Shown one piece after another: positions 32,976 through 63,694 of a DNA stretch of 64,000 nucleotides; position 1 is the first letter of the stretch, and each line of letters begins with the position of its first letter. The translations under genes were made by a program, and so were the position numbers. Below the pieces are notes generated by a model. The model was not told the origin of the DNA, did not search any database, and saw only the letters and a list, made by a program, of their open reading frames with translations. Source of the stretch: Bacteroidota bacterium (GTDB lineage: Bacteria > Bacteroidota > Bacteroidia > Chitinophagales > BACL12); assembly GCA_016715425.1 (NCBI GenBank), contig JADKAC010000005.1, positions 832,798-896,797 on the forward strand, in the 5' to 3' direction.

Positions 32976-34115
32976 ATGAATCTTCTAGAAAAATTATCAG
33001 CACCCGGCCCGAAACGTATTCTTGCCCTGGATGGCGGTGGTATTAAAGGCGCACTCACACTTGGTTTTTTAAATAGAATTGAAACGATTCTTAGAAAAAA
33101 GCATCACAATGAAAACATGGTGCTCAGCAATTATTTCGATTTTATCGGCGGTACCAGTACAGGTTCTATTATTGCAGCGCTGCTTGCAATAGGACATAGC
33201 ACAGAATATATCACTAAACTTTATCGTGAATTAGGTGGAGAAATTTTTAAAGATGATCGTCCTGTAATTGGTGGGTTGTTTGTTCCAAAATTTAAATCGA
33301 AGAATTTAAAAGAACGATTGAAAAAAGAATTTGGTGATATGACTTTAGAAAGTGATAAAATTCTAACCGGACTATGCATACTTACAAAAAGAATTGATAC
33401 AGGAGGAACATGGCCAATAATTAATCATCCGAAGGCAAAATATTTTAAGGATAATAAAGATATTCTGTTGCGGGATGCTGTTCGTGCAAGTACTGCGGCT
33501 CCTTCTTATTTTGAACCGGAAAGATTACAGGTGAAATTAGATCAAGCCGGAGATTTTATTGATGGTGGTGTCAGTATGGCAAATAATCCTGCATTATATA
33601 TGTTTATGGTTTCTCAATTAAAAGGATTTCCATTTCATTGGAATACAGGAAAAGAAAATCTGCTGATAGTTTCGGTTGGAACTGGTGGTACTCGTGCAAG
33701 ATTTCCTTTGGATAAATTAGATATAGTGGACAAGGTGGTAAAGGCAAAACATTGGGCGGTAAGTTCAATTGAATTGTTGATGAGCGATGCTCATATTTTT
33801 AATCAAATGATGTTGCAATCTTTGGGTTATTCACCAACCAGAATTTCCATTGATAGAGAGATTGGCAATATGGAATTAGATTGTATCACCACAAATCCAT
33901 TGTTTACTTATTTGCGTTATGATATGCCTTTCGATCCCGTTATAATTGCACAGCATCCTACTGTTGCAGAATATATAAATAAGTCAAAAATAGATGTGTT
34001 TGATTTGCGTAAAATGGATAAAGCAAAAAATAGAGAGGTGTTAGGTGCTATTGGTGAAATTGCTGCAGATGAACAAGTGAAAGCCGATCATTTTTCAGAT
34101 AGTTTTAATATTTAA
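32976..34115 (+). CDS. patatin-like phospholipase
   Basis: Oxyanion motif LALDGGGIKG, nucleophile elbow GGTSTGS (GxSxG), and catalytic Asp motif FIDGGVSMANNP. The Ser-Asp dyad is complete. Confidence 0.9.
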   Translation: MNLLEKLSAPGPKRILALDGGGIKGALTLGFLNRIETILRKKHHNENMVLSNYFDFIGGTSTGSIIAALLAIGHSTEYITKLYRELGGEIFKDDRPVIGGLFVPKFKSKNLKERLKKEFGDMTLESDKILTGLCILTKRIDTGGTWPIINHPKAKYFKDNKDILLRDAVRASTAAPSYFEPERLQVKLDQAGDFIDGGVSMANNPALYMFMVSQLKGFPFHWNTGKENLLIVSVGTGGTRARFPLDKLDIVDKVVKAKHWAVSSIELLMSDAHIFNQMMLQSLGYSPTRISIDREIGNMELDCITTNPLFTYLRYDMPFDPVIIAQHPTVAEYINKSKIDVFDLRKMDKAKNREVLGAIGEIAADEQVKADHFSDSFNI

Positions 34116-34117
34116 TT

Positions 34118-34342
34118 ATGAAAAAATTTAAAAAAGGGGATATACCTGATTTAAAATTTGCTCAGGCAGTGAAGAAGCCTATTCCGGTAAAATGCATTCA
34201 ATTAGAAGAACCATTTGAAGTGGAAACAATGGAAGGAATTATGCAAGGTAAAGCGGGAGATTGGCTGATAGTGGGAATTCATGGAGAAATGTATCCTATT
34301 GATAAAACGATTTTCGAAAAAACATACGACATAAAAGAATAG
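34118..34342 (+). CDS. small protein, PGDYG-domain-like
   Basis: 74 aa. ...PVKCIQLEEPFEVETMEGIMQGKAGDWLIVGIHGEMYPIDKTIFEKTYDI matches my memory of the PGDYG small-domain pattern (PGDY replaced by AGDW). Starts 2 nt after the patatin stop. Confidence 0.4.
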   Translation: MKKFKKGDIPDLKFAQAVKKPIPVKCIQLEEPFEVETMEGIMQGKAGDWLIVGIHGEMYPIDKTIFEKTYDIKE

Positions 34343-34399: not shown

Positions 34400-35194
34400 A
34401 TGCTGGAATTTTCAAAAAGTATGCAACGATTAATTAGCATGAACAAACTTGAACAGGCTATTGATGAATTTCAAAATGTGTTGGATAGATTTAATCCGAT
34501 TACAGAAACGGATAAAATAGAACAACGGGATTTGCGAACGGCTATCATCGCAACTTCACAACGATTGTATTTAGTAAAAGAAAAAGAACAAAAAGGAAAT
34601 TTAAGTGATGACGAAATCATGCGTGAACGTCGTTCGGTAAGCAATTCATTTCTGGATATAATAAATGAGCTGGATAAATATGATGCAGTAAATGCATATT
34701 TAATTACTTGGGAAGATGAGCAAGCCTGGAGAAAAACAAATTCATTAAATGCCATTGATGCATATAAGGAATATTTAAATAAATATCCTACGGGTAAATA
34801 TGCAGATGATGCAAGAAAATTTATCAGCATGTTGAAGATGATGGAGGAACAAAAAATAAAAGAGAAGGCAGAAGAAATCTATACTCCTCCTTTACAAAGC
34901 CATGCACCAAAACAGGAACGTATTATTTACAATGATCCTCCAGTTGAAAACAGAACAATGTATGAAAAACAACATGCATCTGTGGGTTCCGGCGAAGAAC
35001 TTTCTAATGGCTTATTTATCGTTTTACTCATTGGTTGTATTATTCCAATTATAGGTATTGGTGCCGGTGCGTATTTTCTTTATACAAAAAATAACTCCGT
35101 TTATAAATATGATGAGCCTAGCCGTAAAAAAGGAAGAACACTTATGATAGTGGGAGGGATAATGGTATTTCTATATATTATCGGAGGCTATTGA
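34400..35194 (+). CDS. membrane protein: N-terminal helical adaptor (effector-associated-domain-like), central helical region, C-terminal 2-TM hairpin
   Basis: The N-terminal ~90 aa align with the C-terminus of the adjacent TIR protein (see findings). The C-terminus has two hydrophobic helices, LFIVLLIGCIIPIIGIGAGAYFLY and TLMIVGGIMVFLYIIGGY. Confidence 0.6.
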   Translation: MLEFSKSMQRLISMNKLEQAIDEFQNVLDRFNPITETDKIEQRDLRTAIIATSQRLYLVKEKEQKGNLSDDEIMRERRSVSNSFLDIINELDKYDAVNAYLITWEDEQAWRKTNSLNAIDAYKEYLNKYPTGKYADDARKFISMLKMMEEQKIKEKAEEIYTPPLQSHAPKQERIIYNDPPVENRTMYEKQHASVGSGEELSNGLFIVLLIGCIIPIIGIGAGAYFLYTKNNSVYKYDEPSRKKGRTLMIVGGIMVFLYIIGGY

Positions 35195-35195
35195 A

Positions 35196-35960
35196 ATGCC
35201 TGACTACAAAATCAATAATATCTTCATTTCCTACGCTCACGAAGATGAGCTGTTTAAGGATAAGCTTGTAAAACATTTATCGGGGTTAACAAGAAACGGC
35301 CAAATAAATTTATGGACAGATACGGTTATAGTTCCCGGTCAGGAATGGGATAATGAAATTAAGAATGCATTGCAACAAGCAGATATTATTTTGTTTTTAG
35401 TGAGTGCGGATTTTATGGCTTCCAATTATATTCATACTATCGAAATTGAAAATGCAATTGCAAAACATAATTCTGGTGAAATAATTATTGTTCCGGTAAT
35501 TATCCGTTCTTGCGATTTCCGGAGTTTGCCTTTAAAGAAATTTCAGGCATTGCCAAAAGGAAATGTTCCGGTTACAAAATGGAGCGATGAGGATGAAGCG
35601 TTTTTAAATATTGTAGAAGGTATTAAAATGATTTTGGCTCCGGTAAAAGTAAATACAGCGCCGTCACCAGTTGTAAACCTAGATTCACAGATAATTGCAA
35701 GTATATCTCCTGAAATTTCTAAACAAATTCGCAATTTTATTGCAACTAATAAAACAGAATTGGCAATAAACATTATGATGAAAGTTATTCCTGAAAATAA
35801 TGCAGATGCAAGTAATACCTGTATTGTGTTACAGGCAAAATATAATGAATTGCGTAAAAAGAATAGATTGGGAATTATGTCGTATGATGAATATTCAAGA
35901 TCCGTTTCGGGGGTGAATATTTCATTGCTTGAATTATTGGATACTTTAACTAATGCATGA
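35196..35960 (+). CDS. TIR-domain protein with a C-terminal helical adaptor domain
   Basis: IFISYAHEDELFKDKLVKHL...WTD..VPGQEWDNEIKNALQQADIILFLVSADFMASNYIHTIEIENAI is a TIR_2-type pattern that includes the conserved Glu position. The ~80-aa C-terminal region is helical. Confidence 0.85.
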   Translation: MPDYKINNIFISYAHEDELFKDKLVKHLSGLTRNGQINLWTDTVIVPGQEWDNEIKNALQQADIILFLVSADFMASNYIHTIEIENAIAKHNSGEIIIVPVIIRSCDFRSLPLKKFQALPKGNVPVTKWSDEDEAFLNIVEGIKMILAPVKVNTAPSPVVNLDSQIIASISPEISKQIRNFIATNKTELAINIMMKVIPENNADASNTCIVLQAKYNELRKKNRLGIMSYDEYSRSVSGVNISLLELLDTLTNA

Positions 35961-36928
35961 TGCAATTTCGAACTGAATTATTTCCGGCATCGGAAGCAAT
36001 TGTTATTAATTATAATTCTCGGATTTTTACTATCGGTTCTTGTTTCACTGAACATATTAGCAATACTCTTAGAACTTTAAAATTTAATGTGCTGTCAAAT
36101 CCATTTGGCATTGTATATAATCCGGTTTCAATTTGCAATCAATTGGAAAGAATTGTAAAGAGAAAGTATTTTATTGCTGACGATTTGTTTTTATCTGAAG
36201 GAGTTTATCGCACATTTGAAGCGCATAGCATAATGGCTGATTATACTCAAGAAGAAACATTGCAAAAAATAAATACTGTAATTGATGAATCACATATTAG
36301 GTTACAAAACACTACCCATGTCATCATTACTTTCGGTGCTTCGATTATACATGAGCTTAGTGAAACAAAATCTATAGTAGCAAATAATCACAAACAAGCG
36401 GCAAGTACATTTCAAAAACGTTTTCTCACAATTATTGAAATAGTAGAGGCATATCTGATGATAATATTTTATCTAAAGAAAATGAATGCGGATATTGAAA
36501 TTGTGTTTACCATAAGTCCTGTACGGCATATCAAAGATGGGCTTACGGATAATACAATAAGCAAGTCCTTACTGTTTGCTGCCTTGCATGAAATCTTAAA
36601 TAAAAAAGATATTTTTTATTTTCCTTCTTATGAATTAGTGATAGATGATTTGCGTGATTATCGTTTTTTTGAAAAAGATTTGGTGCATCCCAATGCAATG
36701 GCTATTGATTATGTATGGGAGAAATTTAAATCGTGGGCAATTAGTAAAGATTGTTATTCAACGATGGAAAATATTTCCAAAATAAATTCTGCAATTCAAC
36801 ACAGACCCTTTTTCAATAAAACTGAACAGCATAAGGAATTTAGAAAGAAAATGGTAGAATTTACTTTGCAATTGCAGAAAAAAAATCCGATGTTGAATTT
36901 CGAAAAGGAAATTGAATTCTTTACTTGA
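35957..36928 (+). CDS. GSCFA-family protein (SGNH-hydrolase-like, function unknown)
   Basis: The N-terminal FTIGSCFTEHI matches the GSCFA signature. The remainder is consistent in length (323 aa). ATGA overlap with the TIR gene. Confidence 0.65.
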   Translation: MMQFRTELFPASEAIVINYNSRIFTIGSCFTEHISNTLRTLKFNVLSNPFGIVYNPVSICNQLERIVKRKYFIADDLFLSEGVYRTFEAHSIMADYTQEETLQKINTVIDESHIRLQNTTHVIITFGASIIHELSETKSIVANNHKQAASTFQKRFLTIIEIVEAYLMIIFYLKKMNADIEIVFTISPVRHIKDGLTDNTISKSLLFAALHEILNKKDIFYFPSYELVIDDLRDYRFFEKDLVHPNAMAIDYVWEKFKSWAISKDCYSTMENISKINSAIQHRPFFNKTEQHKEFRKKMVEFTLQLQKKNPMLNFEKEIEFFT

Positions 36929-36940
36929 TTTTTTTAAAAT

Positions 36941-37275
36941 GGTATCGGGTATCGAGTATCGGGTATAGAACTTTGACTATTGACTATTGACTTAGACATT
37001 GACAAAAAAAACACATCACTGAATTTGGCTATTAACTTTTAGCTATTGGCTGTTGGCGAAAAAAAACTTTGACTATTGATGAAAAACTTTGGCTATTGGC
37101 TATTGACCATTAACATTGACTATTGACAAAAAAAACTCATCACTCATTATTGATTATTCATTAATTATTTTTCATTTACAATTTACAATTTACCATTTAC
37201 AATTGCTTATTGCTTATTGCCTTTTGCTAATTGCTTATTATTTTTTCACCATTCACCATTCACCATTCACTATTT
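36941..37275. repeat. mosaic of heptanucleotide tandem-repeat blocks in a convergent intergenic region
   Basis: Blocks of about 4-5 units each: GGTATCG (36941-36968), TTGACTA (36973-37003 and again 37068-37130, mixed with TTGGCTA), TTGGCTA-like (37026-37060), ATTTACA (37174-37204), TTGCTTA (37203-37237), TCACCAT (37246-37273). There is also a higher-order repeat TTGACAAAAAAAAC(A/T)CATCACT at about 36998 and 37123. Confidence 0.9.
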
Positions 37276-51537: not shown

Positions 51538-53060
51538 ATGCCAATACAACCAACATATCCCGGAGTGTATGTTCAAGAAGTGCCCAGTGGGGTACGAACC
51601 ATTGCCGGAGTCAGCACATCCATTGCAATGTTTATCGGACGCACAAAATGGGGGCCTGTAAATGAGCCTATTTCATGTCTGAATTACACCGAATTCCTAC
51701 GCACATTCACTGAAGATATATCGCAGGGTGATATGGCAAGAGCTGTTCGGCTATTTTTTATAAATGGAGGTACTAGATGCTATGTTAATCGCATTGGGGC
51801 AAATATTGATACAGCATTGTTAACTATTCAAGATGGTGAAGGGGCTCCGGCAGATTCTTTAACAGTTTCAGCAAAATATCCTGGCGATTTAGGTGAATCA
51901 ATTCATTTGATAATTACCAACTCCACTACTGGTGTAAATGGCACTTTCGATCTTGAACTTTATAGAGATATTGCTGGAATTAAAACAGATAACCAGAAAT
52001 GGACAGGTCTGTCAATGAATCCTACTAATCAAAAGTATGCTCCCACGTATGTCAATTATAAATGGGCAGTTTTAACTTCAAATGAAATTGTTCCGGCCAC
52101 TGTTCCTCCAACTTTCAATCAATTTGCTCCTGATAATACAGCAGATACTCAACTGGCTGGAGGAAGCGATGGTATAACACCTTTAACCAATAATGAATAT
52201 ACTGCAGCCTATGATGTAATAGATAAGGAAGTAGATTTATTTAATCTTATGATTATTCCAAAAGATAATTCAATTGATCAGGAAGATGTTTGGGCATTGG
52301 CAAGTGAGTTTTGTTTGCGAAGACGAGCCTTCTTGTTAATGGATCCCCGTGAAGAATGGACAACTTATCAAGAAGCCACTCATGTTACGGATGGTGTTAA
52401 TTCACTCCGCACAAGTTTAGTTAAAGACCACAGTGCTGTATTTTCCCCCGATTAACCGTAAATGAAAATGGAGTTACTATTAATGTAGGACCCAGTGGTG
52501 CAATTGCCGGGCTAATGGCAAGAACAGATTCAAACCGTGGTGTTTGGAAAGCACCTGCAGGTACGGAAGCGGATCTTCGGGGAATTACTGGTCTTGAATA
52601 TCGTTTCAGTGATTCAGAAAACGGTGTAATGAATCCGAGAGGAATTAATATAATCCGGATTTTTCCAAACGGTATAGTAAATTGGGGTGCCCGGACTATG
52701 GATGGTGATGATGATTTTGCTAGTGAGTATAAATACATTCCCATTCGCCGAACAGCGCTGTTTATAGAAGAGAGTCTTTATCGAGGTTTAAAATGGGTTG
52801 TTTTCGAACCCAATGATGAGCCACTTTGGGCACAAGTACGATTGAATGTCGGAGCATTTATGCACAACTTGTTTCGTCAGGGAGCATTTCAGGGAACAAA
52901 GAAGCAAGATGCATACTTTGTGAAATGCGACAGTGAAACAACTACACAAAATGATATCAACTTAGGTATAGTAAATATTTGGGTAGGATTTGCTCCTTTA
53001 AAACCTGCTGAATTCGTAATTCTATATCTGCAACAAATGACTGGACAAATACAGGTTTAA
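51538..53060 (+). pseudogene. contractile tail sheath protein (eCIS Afp2-4/Pvc2-4-like), interrupted by a single-base frame disruption
   Basis: N-terminal PTYPGVYVQEVPSGVRTIAGVSTSIAMFIG, and the C-terminal part GPSGAIAGLMARTDSNRGVWKAPAG...NIIR...GARTM. The two parts sit in frames offset by -1 and join as ..SAVFSP|RLTVNENG.. if one base is added in the C5 run at 52445-52449. Confidence 0.85.
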
Positions 53061-53078
53061 CTTTTTAAAACAATAATT

Positions 53079-53585
53079 ATGGCGGTTCCTCAATTTGTGG
53101 TTAATGCGTATCGCTTTGACCCCTACAAAAATTTTAAATTCCGAATTCGTTGGGACGGAAAAGTCGTTGCGGGTGTGAGTAAAGTAACCGGATTAAAACA
53201 ATCCACCGAACCCGTAAAACATAGGGAAGGTGGTGATCCCAGCAGTTCCAGACTAAGCCCAAGTGTTTGGAGTTTCGAACCCATTACTCTTGATAGAGGA
53301 GTAACACATGATCCGGAATTTGAAAACTGGGCAAAAAAAGTGTGGAACGTGGAAGGCGACTCTGCTATCTCCTTAAAAGATTTTCGCAAGGATATTATTA
53401 TTGAATTGCTCAATGAGCAAGGTGTAGTTGCAAAAGCGTATAAAGTATATCGCTGTTGGGTTTCCACTTATCAGGCACTGCCAGAATTAGATGCCGGTGG
53501 AAATGCTGTCGCTATTGAGCAAATGGTTTTGCAAAATGAAGGTTGGGAGCGTGATGTAGAAATTCCTGAACCTTCGCAAACTTAA
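53079..53585 (+). CDS. contractile-system inner tube protein (T4 gp19 / Afp1-Afp5-like)
   Basis: YRFDPYKNFKFRIRWDGKVVAGVSKVTGLKQSTEPVKHREGGD...FEPITLDRGVTHD.EFENW is the conserved phage-tail-region tube signature. Confidence 0.85.
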   Translation: MAVPQFVVNAYRFDPYKNFKFRIRWDGKVVAGVSKVTGLKQSTEPVKHREGGDPSSSRLSPSVWSFEPITLDRGVTHDPEFENWAKKVWNVEGDSAISLKDFRKDIIIELLNEQGVVAKAYKVYRCWVSTYQALPELDAGGNAVAIEQMVLQNEGWERDVEIPEPSQT

Positions 53586-53595
53586 GAGATTGATA

Positions 53596-54357
53596 ATGAG
53601 TGATACAGAAGATTTGTTAATTCCATTGAGGTTAACTCCAGGAGTTGAGTCTATTACTTTAAGGAGTTTGAGAGGTAGGGATGAAATAGTAATTCAAAAT
53701 ACTGGAACAAAAAATCTGTTAAGTTTTCTCGAATCTTTAATTCAATCAGAGCAATCAACTAATAAGATTAATTCTTCCCAAATTGTAACTGCAGATCGAG
53801 ATCGTTTATTAGCACTCTTCTATATCTCTTTGTATGGTGCCAAAATTGAAAGTACGGTAAGCTGTAAAGAATGTGATCAGAAATTTGATCTTGATTTTAG
53901 GCTCGATGAGCTTCTTCAACATTATCAACCATCTACTAGCATTTTACTTAACAGTGGTAAATATGAATTAGAATCTGGAGTTTGTTTCAGGCTTCCCAAT
54001 GGTGAAGATGAAATTCTAATTGAAGGACTCAATATTGAAGAAGCAGAAAAGCAATTATTTGAAAGATGTTTACTCATGGGAGACATTGAAACGGATAAAG
54101 AAAAAGTTCAGCAGAAAATGGCGGAACTTGCACCCTTACTTACAATGAATATGCAAACCATTTGTCCGGAATGTAGCCATGTCCAAGAAGTTCGGTTTGA
54201 TATTCAATCCTTTTTCCTTACAAAACTCAATCAGGAAAAATCCACCTTATTAAGAGAAATACATTCAATAGCATCTCATTATCATTGGTCACATCAGGAA
54301 ATTTTGGAATTGCCCAGAAATTTAAGAAAACAATATGCTGCCTTAATTGAAAGCTGA
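53596..54357 (+). CDS. eCIS-associated hypothetical protein with a split 4-Cys zinc-ribbon-like site
   Basis: Sits directly after the tube gene. CKEC (..SCKECDQKF..) and CPEC (..ICPECSHVQ..) pairs lie about 90 aa apart. Confidence 0.5.
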   Translation: MSDTEDLLIPLRLTPGVESITLRSLRGRDEIVIQNTGTKNLLSFLESLIQSEQSTNKINSSQIVTADRDRLLALFYISLYGAKIESTVSCKECDQKFDLDFRLDELLQHYQPSTSILLNSGKYELESGVCFRLPNGEDEILIEGLNIEEAEKQLFERCLLMGDIETDKEKVQQKMAELAPLLTMNMQTICPECSHVQEVRFDIQSFFLTKLNQEKSTLLREIHSIASHYHWSHQEILELPRNLRKQYAALIES

Positions 54358-54359
54358 TT

Positions 54360-55120
54360 ATGAATAACTACTTTGCAAAGCTTGCAGCTAGAAACAATCA
54401 AGAAAATAATCATTCATTATTACCAATAATTTCAACAAATACTCTCAGTAATGAAAAAGCATTAATTGATGAGAGAGAGAAATTAAAGCCAACTGAATTT
54501 GCTCAGAAGAATGAAGATTTCCAACAAGACCTTTTAACTATTCAACCTCAACCGAAACAATCAATTTTGGAAAAAAATGAAACACCTGAGCTTAAGAATA
54601 ATAATGTTACTTCCTATTTATTAAAGCACATCGACAGAATAAATGATTTTGAAAATAAAGATGCTGCAATTAATAACCATTACACCTCTGAGGAAATGAA
54701 ATATGAAGACTCGGCAAAATCGCTTAAAAAACCTAAACAGCCATTAGGCAATCTAACTCCAAATTCCACAAAGAGTATTTTAAGCGAGGAGGATTATTCA
54801 AATAGTAAATCATATACTGAAGAGAATCCTGAATTTATTTTGCCTTCTCAAATTCAATCTCTAAGTTCCAATAAATTGATTTCAAATAAAAAGGAGTGGA
54901 GAGAATTGTTTCTAATATGGGGGCAAATAAAAACAAGCAACTGGTTCATAATAGAAATCAAATAGCAAGTCCTAAGCTTGTAATTGGAAAAATTATAGTT
55001 GAGATTATATCCCCCAAAACAATTTCTCCTCCCAAAATAATTACAAGGATTGTTTCTCAAAACGCTAAACCAAATTCATCAAAATCAAATAAACTGTCTT
55101 TTGGCTTAGGTCAAATGTAG
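54360..55120 (+). CDS. low-complexity eCIS protein encoded in two -1-offset overlapping frames (possible tape-measure or assembly-chaperone analogue)
   Basis: ORF 54360-54965 is N/S/K/E-rich. The -1 frame is open from 54890 to 55120 and encodes ...SPKLVIGKIIVEIISP...SFGLGQM. An AAA-AAG lysine pair lies at 54888-54893, exactly where the -1 frame opens. Confidence 0.45.
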
Positions 55121-55121
55121 T

Positions 55122-56390
55122 ATGGATTATACTTCTTTAAAAGAGATAAGCGAAACAATTATTGCAGTAATTCAAACAGCAGTAAATGATACTGAAAATT
55201 GGCCGCCAACTTTAAAAGTGCTTCCTGAATTGCTAAGGGATCAAAATAATGGAATTGGATTTTATTTATTTCATGCAAATGAAAGCAGCCACTATAAGAA
55301 TTTTCCTGCTCCCGGAAATGATAATCCTCCCGTGAAATATACCCCAATGGCATTGAATTTATTTTATCAATTATCGGCAAACAGCACAAATATTAATAAT
55401 GAAAAGGATGCCTATGATGAGCAGAATTTGATGAGTGTGGCAATGAAATCTTTACACGATCATTCCGAAATAAAAACAACTACCACCGGTAAAAAAATCA
55501 ATATCAAAATTACTCTTCAAACACTCACGCCAAGTGAATCTGTTCAATACTGGGCCGCAGCGGAATCACCCGTCAGGCTTTCGGCTTATTATGAAGTTTC
55601 CGCTGTATTTCTTGAGCCGGAAAAGCAAAAGTCCTATGCAGGCAGGGTACTTTCTTATGGCAATTTTGTATTCGTAAGAGGATTACCTCAAATTACTTCC
55701 AGCGAAAGTATAATTGAATATATGATGCCGGGAGAAGCTACTTTAAGTCAGGTAAAAATTAGTCCGGCTCAAGCAATTCCTGCATTTATGTTTCCTGATA
55801 TCACCAATAGTAAGGTGAGTTTTTTTGGAACAGGCTTTTATGGAAATAATATAAAATTGTTAGTGATAAGTCCTTTATGGCCGGAACCTGCCTTGGCAGA
55901 TGACTCTTGGCAAGCAACTATTGTTTCTGAAAATCTCTTCACTATTGTTGTTCAACCCACAGCAAATCTGGTGAATGCTTTAACACCTGTAGATATTATT
56001 CCGGGACTTTATTCAGCTCAAGTAAGTATCACTGAAGAAAGGACTTTACCTAATGGAACAATCAAAATATTTAATCATGTTTCTAACCAGTTTCCTTTTT
56101 CAGTAATGCCCCGAATCAGTGCGATTAGCCCTTTAATAGCGGGTGTCTTTTCAGTAACTTGTAATGTATTTCAACATACGGGATTAACTGTAGATGATAT
56201 TCAAGTTTATATCGGAGAAACAAAACTTGTATTATCTAATGCGGTTCTTCCGGCTTCAGGTGAATTTAAAATTACTTCAAATACCACTATTGATATTCAA
56301 ATACCAAGTGGTTTACCATCGGGTGAAATTGCATTGAGAATATTAATTAGAGGAATTGAATCAGAACCCCGATGGATTACAATTCCTTAA
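55122..56390 (+). CDS. DUF4255-domain protein (eCIS tail terminator/cap, Afp16-like) with an extended C-terminal beta-rich region
   Basis: N-terminal ...IGFYLFHANESSHYKNFP....PMALNLFYQLSA...EQNLMSVAMKSLHDHSEI matches the DUF4255 pattern. 422 aa. Confidence 0.65.
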   Translation: MDYTSLKEISETIIAVIQTAVNDTENWPPTLKVLPELLRDQNNGIGFYLFHANESSHYKNFPAPGNDNPPVKYTPMALNLFYQLSANSTNINNEKDAYDEQNLMSVAMKSLHDHSEIKTTTTGKKINIKITLQTLTPSESVQYWAAAESPVRLSAYYEVSAVFLEPEKQKSYAGRVLSYGNFVFVRGLPQITSSESIIEYMMPGEATLSQVKISPAQAIPAFMFPDITNSKVSFFGTGFYGNNIKLLVISPLWPEPALADDSWQATIVSENLFTIVVQPTANLVNALTPVDIIPGLYSAQVSITEERTLPNGTIKIFNHVSNQFPFSVMPRISAISPLIAGVFSVTCNVFQHTGLTVDDIQVYIGETKLVLSNAVLPASGEFKITSNTTIDIQIPSGLPSGEIALRILIRGIESEPRWITIP

Positions 56391-56413
56391 ATGAAATAGT
56401 CAAGTTTAAATAA

Positions 56414-58504
56414 TTGATTGATACAAACGAAAATATAGTTTTTGAAGGTGTAAATATCCAAAGGGATGATTTAGCTGGGCTTGTAGTAGCAAGAATTCGA
56501 TTGCTTTCTCAAAGGCGAATTTCCTGGCTTCGCAAAATTTGGAGTGAAAATTCCAATTCCGGCAATACTGAATTTAATGCCCATAGCGAAGTAGATGGAT
56601 ACCTGATTGATAAAGATATTCCTGTTAAAGAAAGTGAATGGTATGCGCAAGATTCTGAAATACAAGAGATATCATTTCTCTTAAATGAAACCGAACAAGC
56701 CTTGTTAGGTAATCCCGATTTGCGGTTAAATATTCTCGCTGATATTTTTAAATTAAATAGTTTAGAAATTGATATTCTTCAAATATGTCTGGCTATTTCC
56801 ATTGAACCAAATATGGGGAGAGTATTTGCTTATTTGCAAGATAATTCATCAAAAAACTATGTAACTGATTCTTTAGTTGCAAGACTTTTTGGCTATGGCA
56901 ACTGGATTATTTTACCCGCTTCATCATCTTTAAAAATTTGGGGACTAATTAAAGAAAATGTTTCTCAACAAAGCGAACCTGCAAGATTTGAATGTGATCC
57001 TTTTATTAAAAACTGGCTATTAGGATTGGATGCCATTGATGATTCTTTAATCAGCATTTGTAATTTCCAATCGCCAGAAAATCCTTTAAAAAACTGGCCG
57101 GTTCACAATACAGTATCAGATATTAAAAGGATAACGAATAACCAGCCTCAAAATAAACTTAGAGTTTTTGTGGAAGGGTCAGAGGGATGCGGTCGTAAAA
57201 CCTTTGCAGCTGTAGTAAGTAAAAATTTGGGATTGCCGCTAATTGCAATAAATGCAGATAGAATTCCTGAAAACCGTTGGCAACTCTTTTATATGCTTGC
57301 ACAACGACAGGCTTTTCTATTAAATGCAGCCGTGGCCTGGTATGGAGAAACAATGCAAGAGCATTTTTGGCCTTCGGATATTCCTTCCTGCAATTTGCAA
57401 TTTGTAATAGGAGAGTCTGATGAATCTCTTGTTACTAATAGTCATTTTATTGATTTGCGAATAACACTACCAAATATTTCTTATGAAGAAAGGTTAAGCC
57501 TCTGGCGAAAATTTGTTCCGCAATCATTGGAATGGGAAAAAAGGGAAATGGAAGAAATGGTTTTAAGGTATGAAACTACTGCAGGGCAAATTGTTTCCAT
57601 AGGTAAAAAAAGAACGGCGACAATTGAAAATGCCTATGAGGCTTTGCGGGCAGATTCCGGTCGGAGGTTGGGAAGTTTAGCACAGCAAATGCCCGGTACG
57701 TTTTCATTTGATGATTTGGTCTTACCGGATTATACTAGAAAAGGAATTGAAGATTTTGTTTTTGAAGCAACGGAAAGGATTACCTTTTGGGAGCAATCAA
57801 ATACCAAACGTCTTTTCCCTTATGGTCGTGGTCTTATCGGGTTATTTGCCGGTGAATCCGGAACAGGGAAAACAATGGCTGCGCAAGTAATTGCGGCTGA
57901 GTTAAAATTAGATTTATTTCGAATTGATCTTTCTAATGTAGTGAGCAAGTATATTGGTGAAAGTTCAAAAAATATAGAACGCATTTTAGCAAGAGCCAAA
58001 AACATGAATGTGGTTTTGCTTTTTGATGAAGCCGATTCGATCTTTGGGAAAAGAACTGATATTAAAGATGCCCATGACCGTTATGCAAATACGGATACAA
58101 ATTACTTGTTGCAGGCAATCGAATCTTATCCAGGTATAGTAATTCTTTCGAGTAATAAAAAATCAAATATTGACAGTGGGTTTACCAGAAGAATTCGATA
58201 TGTACTGGAATTTTCCAAACCTGATGCAGCGCAAAGACTGCTGATTTGGAAAAAAATATTAGGAGAAATGACAAATAGCCAAACACTTTTAAAACTTGAA
58301 AATGAATTGATTAAGCTTTCTGCTTTAATGGAAATTACAGGTGCCCAAATAAAACAAACTATATTATCAGCATTATTTATTGCACGACGGGAAAAATCAG
58401 AATTGCATATTTCACATTTACTTTCCGGACTTGAAAGAGAGATGGCAAAAGAGGGCAGAGGACTGGGTAAACAGATGCAAGAAAATTTCACCAAAACCTT
58501 ATGA
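56414..58504 (+). CDS. AAA+ ATPase (eCIS Afp15-like)
   Basis: Walker A GESGTGKTMAAQVIA, Walker B VLLFDEADSIFGKR, and SKYIGESSKNIERIL (CDC48/FtsH-like AAA). A long N-terminal region is present, as in Afp15-type proteins. TTG start. Confidence 0.85.
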   Translation: MIDTNENIVFEGVNIQRDDLAGLVVARIRLLSQRRISWLRKIWSENSNSGNTEFNAHSEVDGYLIDKDIPVKESEWYAQDSEIQEISFLLNETEQALLGNPDLRLNILADIFKLNSLEIDILQICLAISIEPNMGRVFAYLQDNSSKNYVTDSLVARLFGYGNWIILPASSSLKIWGLIKENVSQQSEPARFECDPFIKNWLLGLDAIDDSLISICNFQSPENPLKNWPVHNTVSDIKRITNNQPQNKLRVFVEGSEGCGRKTFAAVVSKNLGLPLIAINADRIPENRWQLFYMLAQRQAFLLNAAVAWYGETMQEHFWPSDIPSCNLQFVIGESDESLVTNSHFIDLRITLPNISYEERLSLWRKFVPQSLEWEKREMEEMVLRYETTAGQIVSIGKKRTATIENAYEALRADSGRRLGSLAQQMPGTFSFDDLVLPDYTRKGIEDFVFEATERITFWEQSNTKRLFPYGRGLIGLFAGESGTGKTMAAQVIAAELKLDLFRIDLSNVVSKYIGESSKNIERILARAKNMNVVLLFDEADSIFGKRTDIKDAHDRYANTDTNYLLQAIESYPGIVILSSNKKSNIDSGFTRRIRYVLEFSKPDAAQRLLIWKKILGEMTNSQTLLKLENELIKLSALMEITGAQIKQTILSALFIARREKSELHISHLLSGLEREMAKEGRGLGKQMQENFTKTL

Positions 58505-58737
58505 TACAAATAGATGAATTGCAAATCAGGATGTCGGGCAAAAGCGAATATGATGGAAATACAATAGCCAAACAAGTTGCTGAAAGATTGGCTGAATCTC
58601 TTCCGGAATATTCAGGCACTCACCATATTCCTCAATTAAATGTGCACATGCAATTGAAAGGTTCTAATGATACCACTCAACTTGCAAATCAAATTGCCGA
58701 ACAGATTATCCGCCAAATAAAACTTACCACTTTTTAA
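58501..58737 (+). CDS. small hypothetical protein between the ATPase and DUF4157 genes
   Basis: 78-aa ORF. ATGA overlap with the ATPase stop, and it ends 1 nt before the next ATG. Confidence 0.45.
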   Translation: MIQIDELQIRMSGKSEYDGNTIAKQVAERLAESLPEYSGTHHIPQLNVHMQLKGSNDTTQLANQIAEQIIRQIKLTTF

Positions 58738-58738
58738 A

Positions 58739-59871
58739 ATGAATGCGCTTTTACATCATAACAATTTAGCTGTAAAACCTGCAATGACTTTTGCTAAAAC
58801 AAAACCAGTTGTTCAGGCAAAACTCACTGTAAATGAGCCGGGAGATATCTATGAACAGGAAGCCGAAGCAATGGCAGACAGGGTAATGCGAATGTCTTCC
58901 AACGAAGCAACAAAACCCGTTACAGGTTTAATTGGCAAATCCTTACAAAGAAAATGTGCTCATTGCGAAGAAGAGGAAAAAAAGAAAAACCCATTATGCG
59001 CAAGGCTGAAGCAGGCAATTCGGGTATGTCCGTTTCAACTTCATTTGCTTCTTCTTTAAATGCTTCAAAAGGAGGTGGCTCTCCATTGCCGGATGGAACA
59101 AGGAGTTTTATGGAAAACGCTTTTAGTGCAGATTTTTCGGAGGTAAGAATTCATACAGGAAGCAAGGCTTCTGAAATGAGTAGAGGAATAAATTCAAAAG
59201 CTTTTACGCATGGGAATGATATTTATTTTAATGAGTGCCAATACTCTCCCAATACCCATTCTGGAAAAAGTTTGCTGGCACATGAGTTGACGCACACTAT
59301 ACATCAAAATACAAATCAAAAATCCATCGGAAGTATTCAACGTTTTGCGGATTGCAATGTTTCTCAAAATCAAATGATCAGAGATGGATTGACTCGTGCA
59401 AGAAGAAGATCAACTCGTGCAATTCGTGCGGTTACTAACTTGCAAAACGGGAGTGATAGAAGTGCAGCTGGATCTTTAGCTCGTTTCTTTGGTGAAGTAA
59501 CCTCAGCTCAAATTACAATCATACTAGATAGAATGAATGCTGCCGATGGCCAGTTGAACAATCCAGCACTTTGGAAATGCGATACGGCTGCTACTTATTC
59601 TCATTGTGGTCCACCAAATCCTTGGTGCGCCGGAACCTTATGTCCTTCAATTGGTGCCATTACCCATTTATGTCCTAGGGTTTTTAACGAGGAAAGCTCA
59701 ATGGGATGTGTAGAAAGCAGCAGATCTATATTATTACAACACGAAGCATTGCGAGCTGCAGGTGTATGTGGCGGTGTTCAACCACCTGGAGATATGACAT
59801 CTCCCGGATCAATAAATAATATTTTTTCCTATTCTCGCTTTATGTATAGTATTGCAAGTGGAAGTAGATGA
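58739..59871 (+). pseudogene. DUF4157 (eCIS-associated zincin-like) effector-type protein, copy 1, with a 1-nt frame disruption
   Basis: GGGSPLPDGTRSFMENAFSADFSEVRIHTG...AFTHGNDIYF...LLAHELTHTIHQ. The frame breaks at 58985-58992: AAAAACCC here versus AAAAAGCCC in the paralog at 59896. The C-terminal ~185 aa are Cys-rich and unique. Confidence 0.8.
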
Positions 59872-59895
59872 AAATCGAAAGTTGAAAGAAAAATC

Positions 59896-60813
59896 ATGAT
59901 TCATAATCTTAAAATTAATGATGCTCCAAAAGTTAATAATAAAATAATTAGAGCTAAATCATTTATTAATTCCCCGGGAGATATTTATGAGCAAGAAGCG
60001 GATGCAATGGCATACCGGGTAATGCGCATGTCATCTCAAGAATTTGAAAAACCTGTTACAGGTTTAATAGGTAAATCCTTACAAAGAAAATGTGCTCATT
60101 GCGAAGAAGAAGAAAAAAAGAAAAAGCCCATTATGCGAAAGTCAGAAGCAGGTAATTCTGGTATATCTGTTTCTTCTTCTTTTGCAGCTTCTTTAAATTC
60201 ATCCAAAGGTGGTGGTTCACCATTGTCACAGGGAACAAAAAGTTTTATGGAAAATGCGTTTAGTACTGATTTTTCTGCTGTTAAAATTCATACTGATGTA
60301 CAAGCTTCGGAATTGAGTAAGAGTATTAATGCAAAAGCATTTACGTATGGAAATGATATTTATTTTGGAGATGGACAATATAATCTTGGATCAGTTGATG
60401 GAAAATATTTACTTGCTCATGAGTTGACACATACACTTCAACAAAATATTGATTCCGGATTACTTCAACGAATTCAAGATGGTAGGGCAACCGGCTGGAA
60501 GCGATGGTATGAATTTGTTCAACAAGCAGCAAATAATTTTTATGAGAAAGAATTAAATATTGATATGAGTTTGCAAGAAAATAGAGCCAATATTGTGCAT
60601 AGCTGCAAACATGAAAATAATTGGAACCAGTGTAAAACAGAGAATTATTCGAATAATAGTAATAGCCCACAAGTAACTGTGAGCTGGAGACCAGAAAATA
60701 AGGAGGTTACTGTTATTAATTTACCCCACTTCTGTAGATATACATATGTGCATGATTCAGGTGGATACATTTTTACAAAATTAAATTGTGAAACTTTAGC
60801 TGTTTATACTTAA
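59896..60813 (+). CDS. DUF4157 (eCIS-associated zincin-like) effector-type protein, copy 2, intact
   Basis: GGGSPLSQGTKSFMENAFSTDFSAVKIHTD...AFTYGNDIYF...LLAHELTHTLQQ. The N-terminal ~190 aa are paralogous to copy 1. The C-terminal ~115 aa are unrelated to copy 1. Confidence 0.85.
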   Translation: MIHNLKINDAPKVNNKIIRAKSFINSPGDIYEQEADAMAYRVMRMSSQEFEKPVTGLIGKSLQRKCAHCEEEEKKKKPIMRKSEAGNSGISVSSSFAASLNSSKGGGSPLSQGTKSFMENAFSTDFSAVKIHTDVQASELSKSINAKAFTYGNDIYFGDGQYNLGSVDGKYLLAHELTHTLQQNIDSGLLQRIQDGRATGWKRWYEFVQQAANNFYEKELNIDMSLQENRANIVHSCKHENNWNQCKTENYSNNSNSPQVTVSWRPENKEVTVINLPHFCRYTYVHDSGGYIFTKLNCETLAVYT

Positions 60814-60865
60814 TATGGTTGCTTTATTCACTACTGAAATAAAAAATATTATAAATTAATAACCC

Positions 60866-61588
60866 ATGCCCACCGGCTACTCCCGCTCACCTAAACTTTT
60901 AAAAGGTGCTCTCATAGAATTCTCTGAGCGCTTTATTGGTCCTGTTCCAAATGTGATTGTATTCCAATACAATCCGGAAACGATGACTCGGGCATTGGAA
61001 GTATGGAGTCAAGGTGGAGGCGGAGAATCAACCACCAGCAGCGAAACTTCTCATACAGCCCAACCCTTTGATCCACCCGAAACTTTTACTCTTGCTCTTG
61101 AACTTGATGCTACCGATGCACTGGAAAATCCGGCGTCTCATCCTGTGGCTGCAATTTCTGGCGTGGCAGACAGAATTGCTGCTATGGAAATGCTTTTGTA
61201 TCCTCAGGGTGATAGTTTATTGGGTGGCTTAATGGGTTCAATTTCAAGTTCACTTGGCTTGGGAGGTGGCGGAGCAGTGCAGCCTGTTCCTCGGGGTACT
61301 GTTCCGGTAGTGTTATTTGTTTGGGGGCCTGGTCGCATTATACCAGTAAGACTTACCACTTTTTCTGTTGAAGAACAGGCCTATTCACCATTATTATATC
61401 CCATTCAGGCAAAAGTGAGTTTAGGATTAAAAATTCTAACTCCGAGAGATTTCCCGGAAACCAATAGAAAATTGAGCGAAGAACTTGCCATAACCGCCTT
61501 TAATTTTACCCGCAAACAAAAAGAAGTTTTAGCTGCTTCCAACATGGCCAATAGTGTTGAGTCAATATTGGGAATGCTTCCTTTTTAA
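60866..61588 (+). CDS. contractile-injection-system tube-like / tube-initiator-like protein (Afp7 N-terminal-domain-like)
   Basis: LLKGALIEFSERFIGPVPNVIVFQYNPETMTRAL ... VPVVLFVWGPGRIIPVRLTTFSVEEQAYSPLLYPIQAKVSLGLKIL is a pattern I associate with CIS tube-family proteins encoded next to LysM/gpX genes. Confidence 0.5.
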   Translation: MPTGYSRSPKLLKGALIEFSERFIGPVPNVIVFQYNPETMTRALEVWSQGGGGESTTSSETSHTAQPFDPPETFTLALELDATDALENPASHPVAAISGVADRIAAMEMLLYPQGDSLLGGLMGSISSSLGLGGGGAVQPVPRGTVPVVLFVWGPGRIIPVRLTTFSVEEQAYSPLLYPIQAKVSLGLKILTPRDFPETNRKLSEELAITAFNFTRKQKEVLAASNMANSVESILGMLPF

Positions 61589-61610
61589 TTTCAATCTACA
61601 ACATCAAACT

Positions 61611-61883
61611 ATGTTTTCCGAAAAAAGCAGATACAAAAATGCCACGCAATATGAAGTGACCGACCATAGGGGAAGAACTGTTAAGGTGGTTGCAACACCA
61701 ACCGCTCCACAACAAACCATTAAAGGTTACCACTTGCTTAAACAAGGTCAGCATATTGATCATTTAGCTTCTCTATATCTAAATGATGCCGCCGGATTCT
61801 GGCGAATTGCCGAGGCTAACGATTCTATATTGCCCGAATCACTTACTGAACAATCTGAAATTGCTATACCGAATAAAACTTAA
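61611..61883 (+). CDS. LysM-like tail protein (P2 gpX-like)
   Basis: YHLLKQGQHIDHLASLYLNDAAGFWRIAEANDSILPESLTEQSEIAIP is the LysM/gpX pattern. ATG 61611 is preferred over the track start 61554. Confidence 0.55.
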   Translation: MFSEKSRYKNATQYEVTDHRGRTVKVVATPTAPQQTIKGYHLLKQGQHIDHLASLYLNDAAGFWRIAEANDSILPESLTEQSEIAIPNKT

Positions 61884-61886
61884 ATT

Positions 61887-62953
61887 TTGGGTTTAGATAT
61901 TCTGATATGTGTTGATGATATTCCCAATGAAAATCTTACTCAAAAAGTTAGTAGTGTAGAAGTATATGAGAAAATGGATCAAAACACCAGCTACAAACTG
62001 AATTTTGCTGTGGACATTTGCGATGGAGATATTGCACAAAATATAGAAGCAGATACTGCACCTGCAAAAATTTTAAGTATTCTCGCACATGTAAATGATA
62101 GTCTGATTTGCCTGGTAAAAGGGCCGGTAACCACACAGCAATCTCGTCTTAATCATGGAGGCGCCGGATCTTCATTAAATATAGAAGGCGAGGACACAGG
62201 AAAAAATCTTGATCATGCACCAATATTTCAGATTACAGATTCAGGAACTGACGCCGATATTGTAACTACCATTATATCTAATGCTGACCAAATGATTCCT
62301 GATGTAGAATCAACACCTGATTCACTGCATGCAGAAGAAAACCACAGCCATGTACAGCGTGAATCTAATTTGAGCTTATTAAGAACACTGGCTCGTCGCA
62401 ATGGCTTTCATTTTTGGATTACATACACAAACGAAGGAATGGCTACAGGTCATTTCCGGTCACGCAGTTTAGATGGGCAGCCGGCAAATACTTTAATTGT
62501 AAATCATGAGAATAACAATATTGATTTGTTACAGGTAAATTCCGATTCAACCCGCCCTTCAAGAACCGAAGGCAGGCAAATTGATCTTAGAACGCTGAGT
62601 GTTATCGGTGGTGAAACTACTTTGGAAGATTCTACTTTAGGGTCAAGTGGATTGCGGGAGTTAAATGGCACGGAACAACAATCCATTCAACTGGCACCTG
62701 CAGTTGATGATGCTGGAGCCTTAACCGCCAGAAGCAGGGAGCTTTAAGAGATGCGCAATGGTTTATAAATGCCACTTGCCAAACCAGTCTTCACCGACTT
62801 TGCAATATCGTTCGGTTTCATACTTTAGTCCAAGTTCAAGGTGCCGGAAGTCGCCATAGCGGCAATTATTATGTTACGGGTGTAAGACATAAAATTGATG
62901 CGGTCGGCCATGTAATGGATTTAGAATTGGAAAGAAACGCATGGGGAAATTAA
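61887..62953 (+). pseudogene. phage late-control gpD-like baseplate hub protein, with a 1-nt frame disruption near the C-terminus
   Basis: The main ORF ends at 62747. The -1 frame (open from 62711) encodes GALRDAQWFINATCQTS...VQVQGAGSRHSGNYYVTGVRHKIDAVGHVMDLELERNAWGN, the conserved gpD C-terminus. One extra G in the GGG run at 62737-62739 would join the two frames. Confidence 0.7.
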
Positions 62954-62989
62954 CTATTAAGTAAAATGGCAATAAACACACTATAAAGA

Positions 62990-63694
62990 ATGGACGATCA
63001 ATTAGTTCAACAATTATTAGAGTGGACACGAAATAAGTTTTTTGGCAAGTATCGTGGTTTAGTAACTGATAATAATGATGCGACCAACAGAGGTAGGGTT
63101 AAGGTAAATGTTCCCGCCGTTTTTAATGAGTTAGAAGTTTGGGCTTTGCCTTGCCTGCCTTACACTGGAGATAACGTTGGTTTTTACACAATTCCTGATT
63201 CCGGTGCCGGAGTTTGGGTTGAGTTTGAAGGAGGTGATCCCTCTTTTCCTATTTGGACAGGTGGCTTTTGGGCTGATGGTCAATTACCAACTAATGAACA
63301 AGGCAGCGGCGCTACGCCTACTTTACGCATGTTACGGAGTGAAAAAGGATTGATGATAACCTTTAACGACGACGCCGAAGTGCTTACTTTAAGTGATGAA
63401 AACGGCAGTAATATCATGACATTTGAAGTACAGTCGGGCAAAATAAAAATACAAGCTAACATAAAAGTTGTTGTGGAAGCTCCATTAATTGAATTGGTTG
63501 AAAATTCAACACATCCCTTGGTTTTTGGCGATAACCTGCTTCAATATCTTAACCAGATAGTTCAAACATTTAATACACACATGCATCCCGGAGAATTAGC
63601 AGCCGGAGTAATACCGGTAACACCTATGACTCCGGTACCGCCAATGCCACCGGCCACACCAAGTCTTTTATCTAACAAGGTTACTACAGGATAA
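62990..63694 (+). CDS. baseplate spike protein (gpV / gp5 OB-fold, VgrG-like)
   Basis: FGKYRGLVTDNNDATNRGRVKVNVPAVF...WALPCLPYTG...GFYTIPDSGAGVWVEFEGGDPSFPIWTGGFW is the gpV/gp5 N-terminal signature. Confidence 0.8.
   Translation: MDDQLVQQLLEWTRNKFFGKYRGLVTDNNDATNRGRVKVNVPAVFNELEVWALPCLPYTGDNVGFYTIPDSGAGVWVEFEGGDPSFPIWTGGFWADGQLPTNEQGSGATPTLRMLRSEKGLMITFNDDAEVLTLSDENGSNIMTFEVQSGKIKIQANIKVVVEAPLIELVENSTHPLVFGDNLLQYLNQIVQTFNTHMHPGELAAGVIPVTPMTPVPPMPPATPSLLSNKVTTG

Follow-up and report, generated by a model that had tools for sequence, protein, structure and literature searches.

Within the window analysed here, a stretch of 64 kb from contig JADKAC010000005.1 of a Bacteroidota bacterium, two adjacent genes encode a 264-residue membrane protein and a TIR domain protein that each carry one copy of the adaptor domain EAD11, a member of the effector-associated domains (EADs) of bacterial conflict systems. 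We lean towards the view that the two genes belong to a membrane-tethered TIR/patatin conflict module, in which the EAD11 copies pair the TIR protein with the membrane protein and which probably serves anti-phage defence by abortive infection. The parts of the two genes are as follows, in positions of the window.

34400-35194, + strand: 264-aa membrane protein with EAD11, TPR-like unit, disordered linker and C-terminal two-helix hairpin (open reading frame and translation)
34400-34681, + strand: EAD11 copy 1, residues 1-94 of the 264-aa protein (Pfam EAD11, hhalign, AlphaFold2 helices)
34682-34879, + strand: helical middle region, residues 95-160 of the 264-aa protein, with the TPR-like unit (weak TPR_6, BamD and YbgF matches)
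35006-35191, + strand: C-terminal two-helix membrane hairpin of the 264-aa protein (hydrophobicity, charges, AlphaFold2)
35196-35960, + strand: TIR-EAD11 protein, 254 aa (Pfam TIR_2, E 2.8e-17; EAD11, E 3.3e-16)
35214-35636, + strand: TIR domain, residues 7-147, with the invariant Glu83 (Foldseek, family alignment)
35700-35957, + strand: EAD11 copy 2, residues 169-254 of the TIR protein (Pfam EAD11, AlphaFold2)

Two adjacent copies of EAD11

A preliminary description of this DNA, made from the letters and their translations, had noticed by eye that one helical adaptor domain of ~80 residues recurs at the N-terminus of the protein starting at 34400 and at the C-terminus of the TIR protein, had guessed that it was of the EAD type and had proposed a comparison of profiles. 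Both segments are indeed copies of a known adaptor domain, EAD11 (PF19964), with scores above the curated Pfam cut-off of 26 bits: residues 7-92 of the 264-aa protein match with 38.9 bits (E 8.3e-10) and residues 176-251 of the TIR protein with 59.4 bits (E 3.3e-16). Compared directly by BLASTP, the two segments show no significant similarity (E 3.5, 21% identity), so that the resemblance seen by eye is insufficient alone and profiles are needed. The alignment of a profile of the membrane-protein N-termini with a profile of 14 TIR C-termini by hhalign revealed clear similarity (97%, E 7.7e-11, 80 columns), the sole gap being a 10-residue insertion (PITETDKIEQ) between helices of the membrane-protein copy. 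The missing profile similarity that the preliminary description had named as a refutation was thus not observed. The positions given earlier were thus right while the size has to be corrected: the domain spans about 85-94 residues and starts at residue 1-7 of the membrane protein, where it is N-terminal, its counterpart being C-terminal in the TIR protein.

A search of the six-frame translation with a two-set hidden Markov model (HMM) returned exactly two EAD11 copies in the window, those in the adjacent genes. In AlphaFold2 models, the TIR-linked copy is built from four helices (172-183, 187-197, 203-225 and 230-253; predicted local distance difference test score, pLDDT, 85-92), and the copy on the membrane protein contains helices at residues 14-29, 36-65 and 70-93 (pLDDT about 80-89). 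Sequence comparison of EAD11 with the PDB yielded noise only, and no EAD11 was found in phage records.

According to Kaur et al. (PMC7159879, PMC8195603), an EAD is a terminal domain that occurs on an enzymatic effector and, as a second copy, often in an adjacent gene of the operon. The homotypic-adaptor layout suggested in the preliminary description fits this principle: two adjacent genes share a terminal domain that is small, entirely helical and devoid of catalytic function, and one of them encodes a TIR effector. Pairing with an effector across adjacent genes defines the EAD pattern, so that the finding is in essence of a known type. The second copy resides on a TPR-like protein with two transmembrane helices (2-TM protein), unlike in the described EAD systems, where it is found on VMAP, iSTAND, GAP1, Ubl, STAND or AP-GTPase proteins. 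The portion of the supplement of PMC8195603 available to us places EAD11 on LRR+AP-GTPase+COR proteins of Haliscomenobacter; a discussion of EAD11 was not found in the main texts of PMC7159879 and PMC8195603.

The TIR-EAD11 protein

When the AlphaFold2 model of the TIR protein (mean pLDDT 79.5) was compared with known structures by Foldseek, its TIR domain matched TIR structures only, namely those of RPS4, SARM1, AbTir and SPARTA. In PADLOC, the protein matches the ThsB1 model (E 5.2e-45). Glu83 is invariant in 20 family members and aligns with the glutamate of the ...YEL... motif of BtTir (7uxr). As this position is the catalytic one in TIR NADases, the protein is predicted to be an active NAD+-cleaving enzyme.

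The closest relatives of the TIR domain (P0014, P0041 and P0034; P and L numbers denote proteins and loci of our comparison) share 44-60% identity over TIR and are fused to iSTAND (PF19995) or EAD7 (PF19960). One TIR type has therefore been swapped among different adaptors. As iSTAND and EAD7 are hallmarks of the conflict systems of Kaur et al., this type belongs in their network. Among named relatives of the TIR protein, the closest stems from a Chitinophagales metagenome-assembled genome (MAG), and a scan of a genome collection with full-length TIR-EAD11 returned mostly TIR-only relatives.

The EAD11 membrane protein

The 264-aa open reading frame begins with MLEF, a start that is invariant across five relatives. 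Homologues are few: five proteins at 56-90% identity, all with PF19964, and a more distant relative at 35-37% in locus L012. The AlphaFold2 model has a mean pLDDT of 67.5 and found nothing below E 0.8 when compared with the PDB by Foldseek; the protein had no match in PHROG, and a metagenome scan with the family returned no relative.

The middle region (residues 95-160) is modelled as three helices (95-116, 119-128 and 135-160) and contains one TPR-like unit of the BamD/YbgF type (WRKTNSLNAIDAYKEYLNKYPTGKYADDA). Matches to this unit are weak, with E 0.031 for Pfam TPR_6 and, far under the respective NCBIfam cut-offs, E 2.9e-4 for BamD and E 1.3e-3 for YbgF. All family members share W110, Y122, Y125, Y129, P130, G132, K133 and Y134. 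A disordered linker of variable length (residues 161-202) leads to the hairpin, in which a first transmembrane (TM) helix at about 203-229 and a second at 249-264 enclose a loop at 230-248, with modelled helices at 203-228 and 239-263. Conservation extends to the motif P216..G219..AG.Y225 and, in the loop (positions 35087-35143 of the window), to K230, Y235, K236, R242, K244 and G245. The hairpin had no match to SLATT or any other Pfam family at E<=1, and a classification of the 2-TM module as SLATT was therefore rejected. A metagenome scan with this module alone gave a single match of 29 residues in a zinc-ribbon membrane protein, which suggests only a generic anchor motif.

Conservation of the pair and of the surrounding cassette

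The EAD11 pair lies within a head-to-tail run of five genes on the + strand, coding for the patatin, the PGDYG-like protein, the 264-aa protein, the TIR protein and a GSCFA-family protein. The genes that flank the pair are the following.

32976-34115, + strand: patatin-like phospholipase, CapV-like, 379 aa (Pfam Patatin, E 3.3e-29)
34118-34342, + strand: PGDYG-like protein, 74 aa (Pfam PGDYG, 23.6 bits, under the 27-bit cut-off)
35957-36928, + strand: GSCFA-family protein, 323 aa (Pfam GSCFA, E 2.1e-81)

Spacing is tight throughout: the PGDYG-like gene starts 2 nt past the patatin stop, the start codon of TIR-EAD11 is located 1 nt beyond the stop of the membrane protein (TGA-A-ATG), and the GSCFA gene and the TIR stop overlap by 4 nt (ATGA). 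A scan for sigma-70 promoters and terminators, with a model that excludes Bacteroidota promoters, performed no better than on shuffled sequence.

The same gene order is present in loci L001 and L092. The gap between the EAD11-2TM and TIR-EAD11 genes amounts to 1 nt in the window, 6 in L001, 9 in L092 and 11 in L012. The membrane protein and the TIR protein diverge in step, with identities of 63/61% to L001 and 56/56% to L092, and both diverge more rapidly than do the patatin, the PGDYG-like protein or the housekeeping genes on either side (68-81%). In L012, from a more distant Chitinophagales MAG, the pair is still adjacent at 35-48% identity and is followed by unrelated genes; on the upstream side, this contig is truncated. 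The cassette had no match among plasmid records.

GSCFA is kept after TIR in L001 and L092, where no other gene of the block diverges as fast (50% identity). We provisionally rejected it as a component, since it does not follow the pair in L012 and does not occur in any other TIR-EAD11 locus; given the unrelated genes 3' of the L012 pair, it is probably a syntenic neighbour.

The phospholipase and the PGDYG-like protein

The patatin matches the phospholipase effector of CBASS (cyclic oligonucleotide-based antiphage signalling system) type in PADLOC with E 7e-50 and reaches 136.8 bits with NCBIfam CBASS_lipase, under the 200-bit cut-off of that family. Its closest solved structure is that of cGAMP-activated CapV (PDB 8zr9, E 5.8e-20). 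The motifs GGGIKG (residue 20), GTSTG (residue 59, with Ser61) and DGGV (residue 196) are present and the Ser-Asp dyad is intact. Patatin homologues adjoin TIR-EAD11 in L001, L092, L003/4/17, L006 and L010, being full-length in four layouts, and a partial homologue is located upstream of a related TIR in L072.

The PGDYG-like domain turns up repeatedly in the same company. Two copies of it follow at the C-terminal end of a patatin as a fusion (L006, 14137-15819, - strand; L010, 11721-13394, - strand). The domain is also doubled in a lipoprotein-like protein encoded directly upstream of TIR-EAD11 in L003/4/5/17/19 (9424-9999 in L003) and stands beside a related TIR in Dictyobacter. In PHROG, the PGDYG-like protein matched families without an assigned function at E values down to 2e-13, and tblastn found 514 phage records, all annotated as hypothetical; a sequence comparison with the PDB yielded noise only. 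A phage-type small domain is hence linked to a defence-type phospholipase and to TIR.

EAD11 in other proteins and loci

An exhaustive HMMER search with the two-set EAD11 profile retrieved 8080 cluster representatives at E<=1e-3. EAD11 copies and TM segments were located in the 143 newly retrieved proteins among the best 150 matches; 115 of these were scanned against Pfam, and all (115/115) match EAD11. Among the scanned proteins, typical effector partners of the domain are TIR, CHAT/caspase, trypsin, PNP, SIR2 and a calcineurin-like phosphoesterase, and typical hubs are nSTAND1, KAP_NTPase, AAA_16, NB-ARC and Roc-COR with LRR. Tandem arrays of 3-6 EAD11 copies occur in proteins of 1000-1600 aa (P0059-P0072, P0091, P0121), together with caspase/CHAT, TIR, trypsin or NTPase domains, and look like multivalent docking platforms.

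In approximately 30 of the 143 mapped representatives, an N-terminal EAD11 is followed by one to three TM segments, in some cases with an ectodomain. Two of these (P0108 and P0141) combine EAD11 with a 2-TM region that looks SLATT-like by eye. An unrelated EAD11 protein with one TM segment and an ectodomain is encoded two genes from TIR-EAD11 in L006/7 and L010. With two unrelated EAD11 membrane proteins near TIR-EAD11, a partner of this kind has arisen at least twice.

Related loci are rich in TIR, CHAT, SLATT, SIR2 and nSTAND1 genes. In L008 (1131-5982), an nSTAND1 gene is situated between TIR-EAD11 and SIR2-EAD11, the nSTAND1 protein itself being devoid of detectable EAD11. A SLATT_1 gene follows directly 3' of TIR-EAD11 in L013, and L003/4/19 feature a divergent SLATT_1, patatin and TIR operon.

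A model for the EAD11 pair and its alternatives

In the model that we lean towards, the 264-aa polypeptide would reside in the inner membrane; its EAD11 would lie in the cytoplasm and be followed by the TPR-like unit, the flexible linker and, at the C-terminus, the hairpin. The two EAD11 copies would bind each other and thereby hold the TIR enzyme at the membrane, where the membrane protein would probably keep it in check. The pair would constitute the variable half of a four-gene cassette with the patatin and the PGDYG-like protein as the other half, and this context points to a module with two damaging activities, cleavage of NAD+ and hydrolysis of phospholipids. One may speculate that a disturbance of the envelope or membrane, or the binding of a phage protein to the TPR-like unit, frees or clusters TIR, and that the freed enzyme then either depletes NAD+ or generates an ADP-ribose-derived signal that activates the patatin, possibly through the PGDYG-like domain.

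Several observations weigh against this model. The two EAD11 copies share 26.8% identity and hold mutual ranks of 27 and 73 among 249 EAD11 domains; they are not each other's closest relatives, and one published tendency of EADs, that adjacent copies are closest, is therefore not seen. The conserved loop between the TM helices has a net charge of +4 and the segment before TM1 one of -2, which by the positive-inside rule conflicts with the topology that the model needs, with both N- and C-terminus inside. The cassette occupies the same chromosomal site in three related genomes and is thus not visibly mobile. The 264-aa protein has no match in PADLOC, which holds no model for it. Finally, no second EAD11 was detected in the 6-10 kb flanks of most other TIR-EAD11 loci (L003/4, L011, L013, L015, L019, L021 and L043), and three EAD11-TM proteins are without an EAD11 neighbour on their contigs, two of which are very short; adjacency of EAD11 genes is thus recurrent but not the rule.

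The most serious alternative, which we consider unlikely yet deserving of real weight, is a distal hub. Both proteins would be effectors, the 2-TM protein perturbing the membrane and the TIR protein acting as an NADase. Each would be recruited via EAD11 to an NTPase hub elsewhere in the genome that bears EAD11 itself, for instance a STAND or AP-GTPase protein and possibly one with tandem EAD11, and their binding to each other would not be primary. Kaur et al. (PMC7159879, PMC8195603) reported that further EAD copies are often found elsewhere in the genome, correlating with a core component that bears the same EAD, and the EAD11 examples in the accessible portion of PMC8195603 are LRR+AP-GTPase+COR proteins of one species of Bacteroidota. 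The domain is present on nSTAND1, KAP_NTPase, AAA_16, NB-ARC and Roc-COR/LRR proteins and in tandem arrays, P0108 and P0141 indicate that it can carry membrane modules, and TIR-EAD11 and SIR2-EAD11 flank nSTAND1 in L008. That nSTAND1, however, lacks a detectable EAD11. Nor was a STAND, AP-GTPase, vWA or MoxR gene or a third EAD11 copy found within the window; the orthologous loci L001 and L092 gave no call of an NTPase hub in flanks of 8-10 kb, and the pair remains nearly abutting across identities of 35-63%, beyond what two independent effectors would need. The minimal architecture without NTPase hub that the preliminary description had proposed is accordingly supported locally, in the window and in the flanks of the orthologues; as a statement about the system it is weakened by the frequently distal location of EAD partners and by the common occurrence of EAD11 on NTPases.

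A more elaborate version of the preferred model, which we regard as rather doubtful, would join all four genes into a hub-less, membrane-associated TIR defence system of a kind not described before. Here, EAD11-2TM would sense a disturbance of the envelope or of the membrane potential and release or cluster TIR, the product of which would activate the patatin via the PGDYG-like domain; the atypically positive hairpin loop might insert or flip on depolarisation. If this were true, TIR-derived nucleotides would have a new type of receptor in the PGDYG fold, and the many small PGDYG homologues of phages would be candidate signal sponges with an anti-defence function.

Less probable still is that EAD11 homo-oligomerises each protein separately, giving rise to TIR filaments or clusters on the one hand and to clusters of the membrane protein on the other, the adjacency of the genes being a product of domain shuffling. 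TIR NADases generally require oligomerisation, many TIR-EAD11 genes are without a nearby second EAD11 and the two copies are as divergent as stated above (26.8% identity), all of which is in keeping with such self-association. Against it, two membrane-protein families that are unrelated to each other both supply adjacent EAD11 partners, a spacing of 1 nt suggests that the two proteins are co-translated in a fixed proportion, and their divergence is equal and comparatively fast (63/61% and 56/56%).

We deem it highly improbable that the genes form a housekeeping module for membrane lipids or NAD-related metabolism, in which EAD11 would be a generic helical dimerisation element. The shared chromosomal position in three related genomes, the moderate divergence, the housekeeping genes on both sides and the lack of matches among plasmid records would suit this explanation. 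Against it, all recognisable domains are of conflict type (ThsB1-like TIR, CapV-like patatin, EAD11), related loci are crowded with TIR, CHAT, SLATT, SIR2 and nSTAND1 genes, and the fusion partners of the nearest TIR relatives are iSTAND and EAD7. The chance resemblance of two amphipathic helical segments, with which the pairwise BLASTP value of E 3.5 would agree, has virtually no standing and is refuted by the Pfam and hhalign results, as both segments score above the EAD11 cut-off, the profiles match at E 7.7e-11 and the 8080 representatives retrieved included 115 scanned proteins that were EAD11 without exception.

EADs are predicted to wire immune effectors to their controllers in the way in which Death-fold domains do in animals; as far as we found, this has never been shown, and the literature examined on this point held no experimental test of any EAD interaction. 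An EAD11 pair that offers both an enzymatic read-out, the NADase activity of TIR, and a localisation read-out, membrane versus cytosol, would be among the easiest tests of such wiring. Literature searches on EAD11, PGDYG and the combination of TIR, patatin and SLATT found no description of the present arrangement. By the searchable literature and PADLOC, a TPR-like 2-TM partner for EAD11, the apparent absence of an NTPase and the linkage of patatin, PGDYG-like protein and TIR are not described. The recurrence of this linkage, which is outside the PADLOC library, provides a lead, as does the fusion of a small protein family widespread in phages to a defence-type phospholipase. Should the pair merely plug into a distal NTPase hub, it would be an ordinary member of the published EAD network.

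Comparison with related systems

The locus shares features with four groups of known systems and misses at least one defining feature of each. As in Thoeris, a ThsB-type TIR with its active-site glutamate is encoded beside candidate effectors. Unlike in Thoeris, the operon is devoid of ThsA (SIR2-SLOG or Macro-TM) and of the caspase-like effector of type IV, the candidates being the patatin and the 2-TM protein, and coupling is proposed to proceed in part by protein contact through EAD11 instead of by a diffusible signal alone. The resemblance to type I CBASS lies in the patatin, for which cGAMP-activated CapV is closest, whereas a CD-NTase or other cyclase is missing from the operon and the conserved partners are TIR and the PGDYG-like domain. 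A small 2-TM protein beside TIR is also reminiscent of SLATT effectors, and a true SLATT_1 protein takes the equivalent place in L013 and is encoded near TIR-EAD11 in L003/4/19. The present protein differs in that its TM helices are at the extreme C-terminus and separated by a 19-residue loop, and in that it contains EAD11, which the SLATT proteins of L013 and L019 lack.

Metazoan Death-fold adaptors (Death, CARD, Pyrin) bring an effector to its partner by homotypic contacts, as is proposed here, and the preliminary description had associated the domain with Death-like systems. EAD11 is not demonstrably Death-like: the domain is modelled with four helices and not as a six-helix bundle, and in the published HHpred network of EAD and Death families, EAD11 recovers itself alone (PMC8195603). 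A Death-like fold was rejected on these grounds. Death-fold structures were absent from the Foldseek matches of either whole-protein model in the PDB.

Genomic surroundings

The window has a G+C content of ~33% and harbours genes for a TonB-dependent receptor and for proteins with the C-terminal tail of the type IX secretion system (T9SS), which fits a Bacteroidota chromosome, as does the Chitinophagales relative of the TIR protein. Its large open reading frames have commonplace products, among them polyphosphate kinase, Ppx, a two-component system, a C25 peptidase, a penicillin amidase, a P-type ATPase and RelA/SpoT. The right flank of the cassette is unlike that of L001 and L092, where RmuC occupies the position 3' of GSCFA. 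In the window, this position is taken by chained 7-bp tandem repeats (36941-37274) with ~4-6 copies of each unit, the units being GGTATCG, TTGACTA (in two arrays), TCATTAT, ATTTACA, ATTGCTT and TTCACCA. Farther downstream, at 51538-63694, a contractile injection system is encoded that resembles the extracellular type (eCIS). Its cluster contains genes for a sheath C-terminal domain, a T4-type baseplate protein and Pvc16_N, for an AAA ATPase that also bears a winged-helix domain, and for two eCIS_core proteins together with a CIS tube protein.

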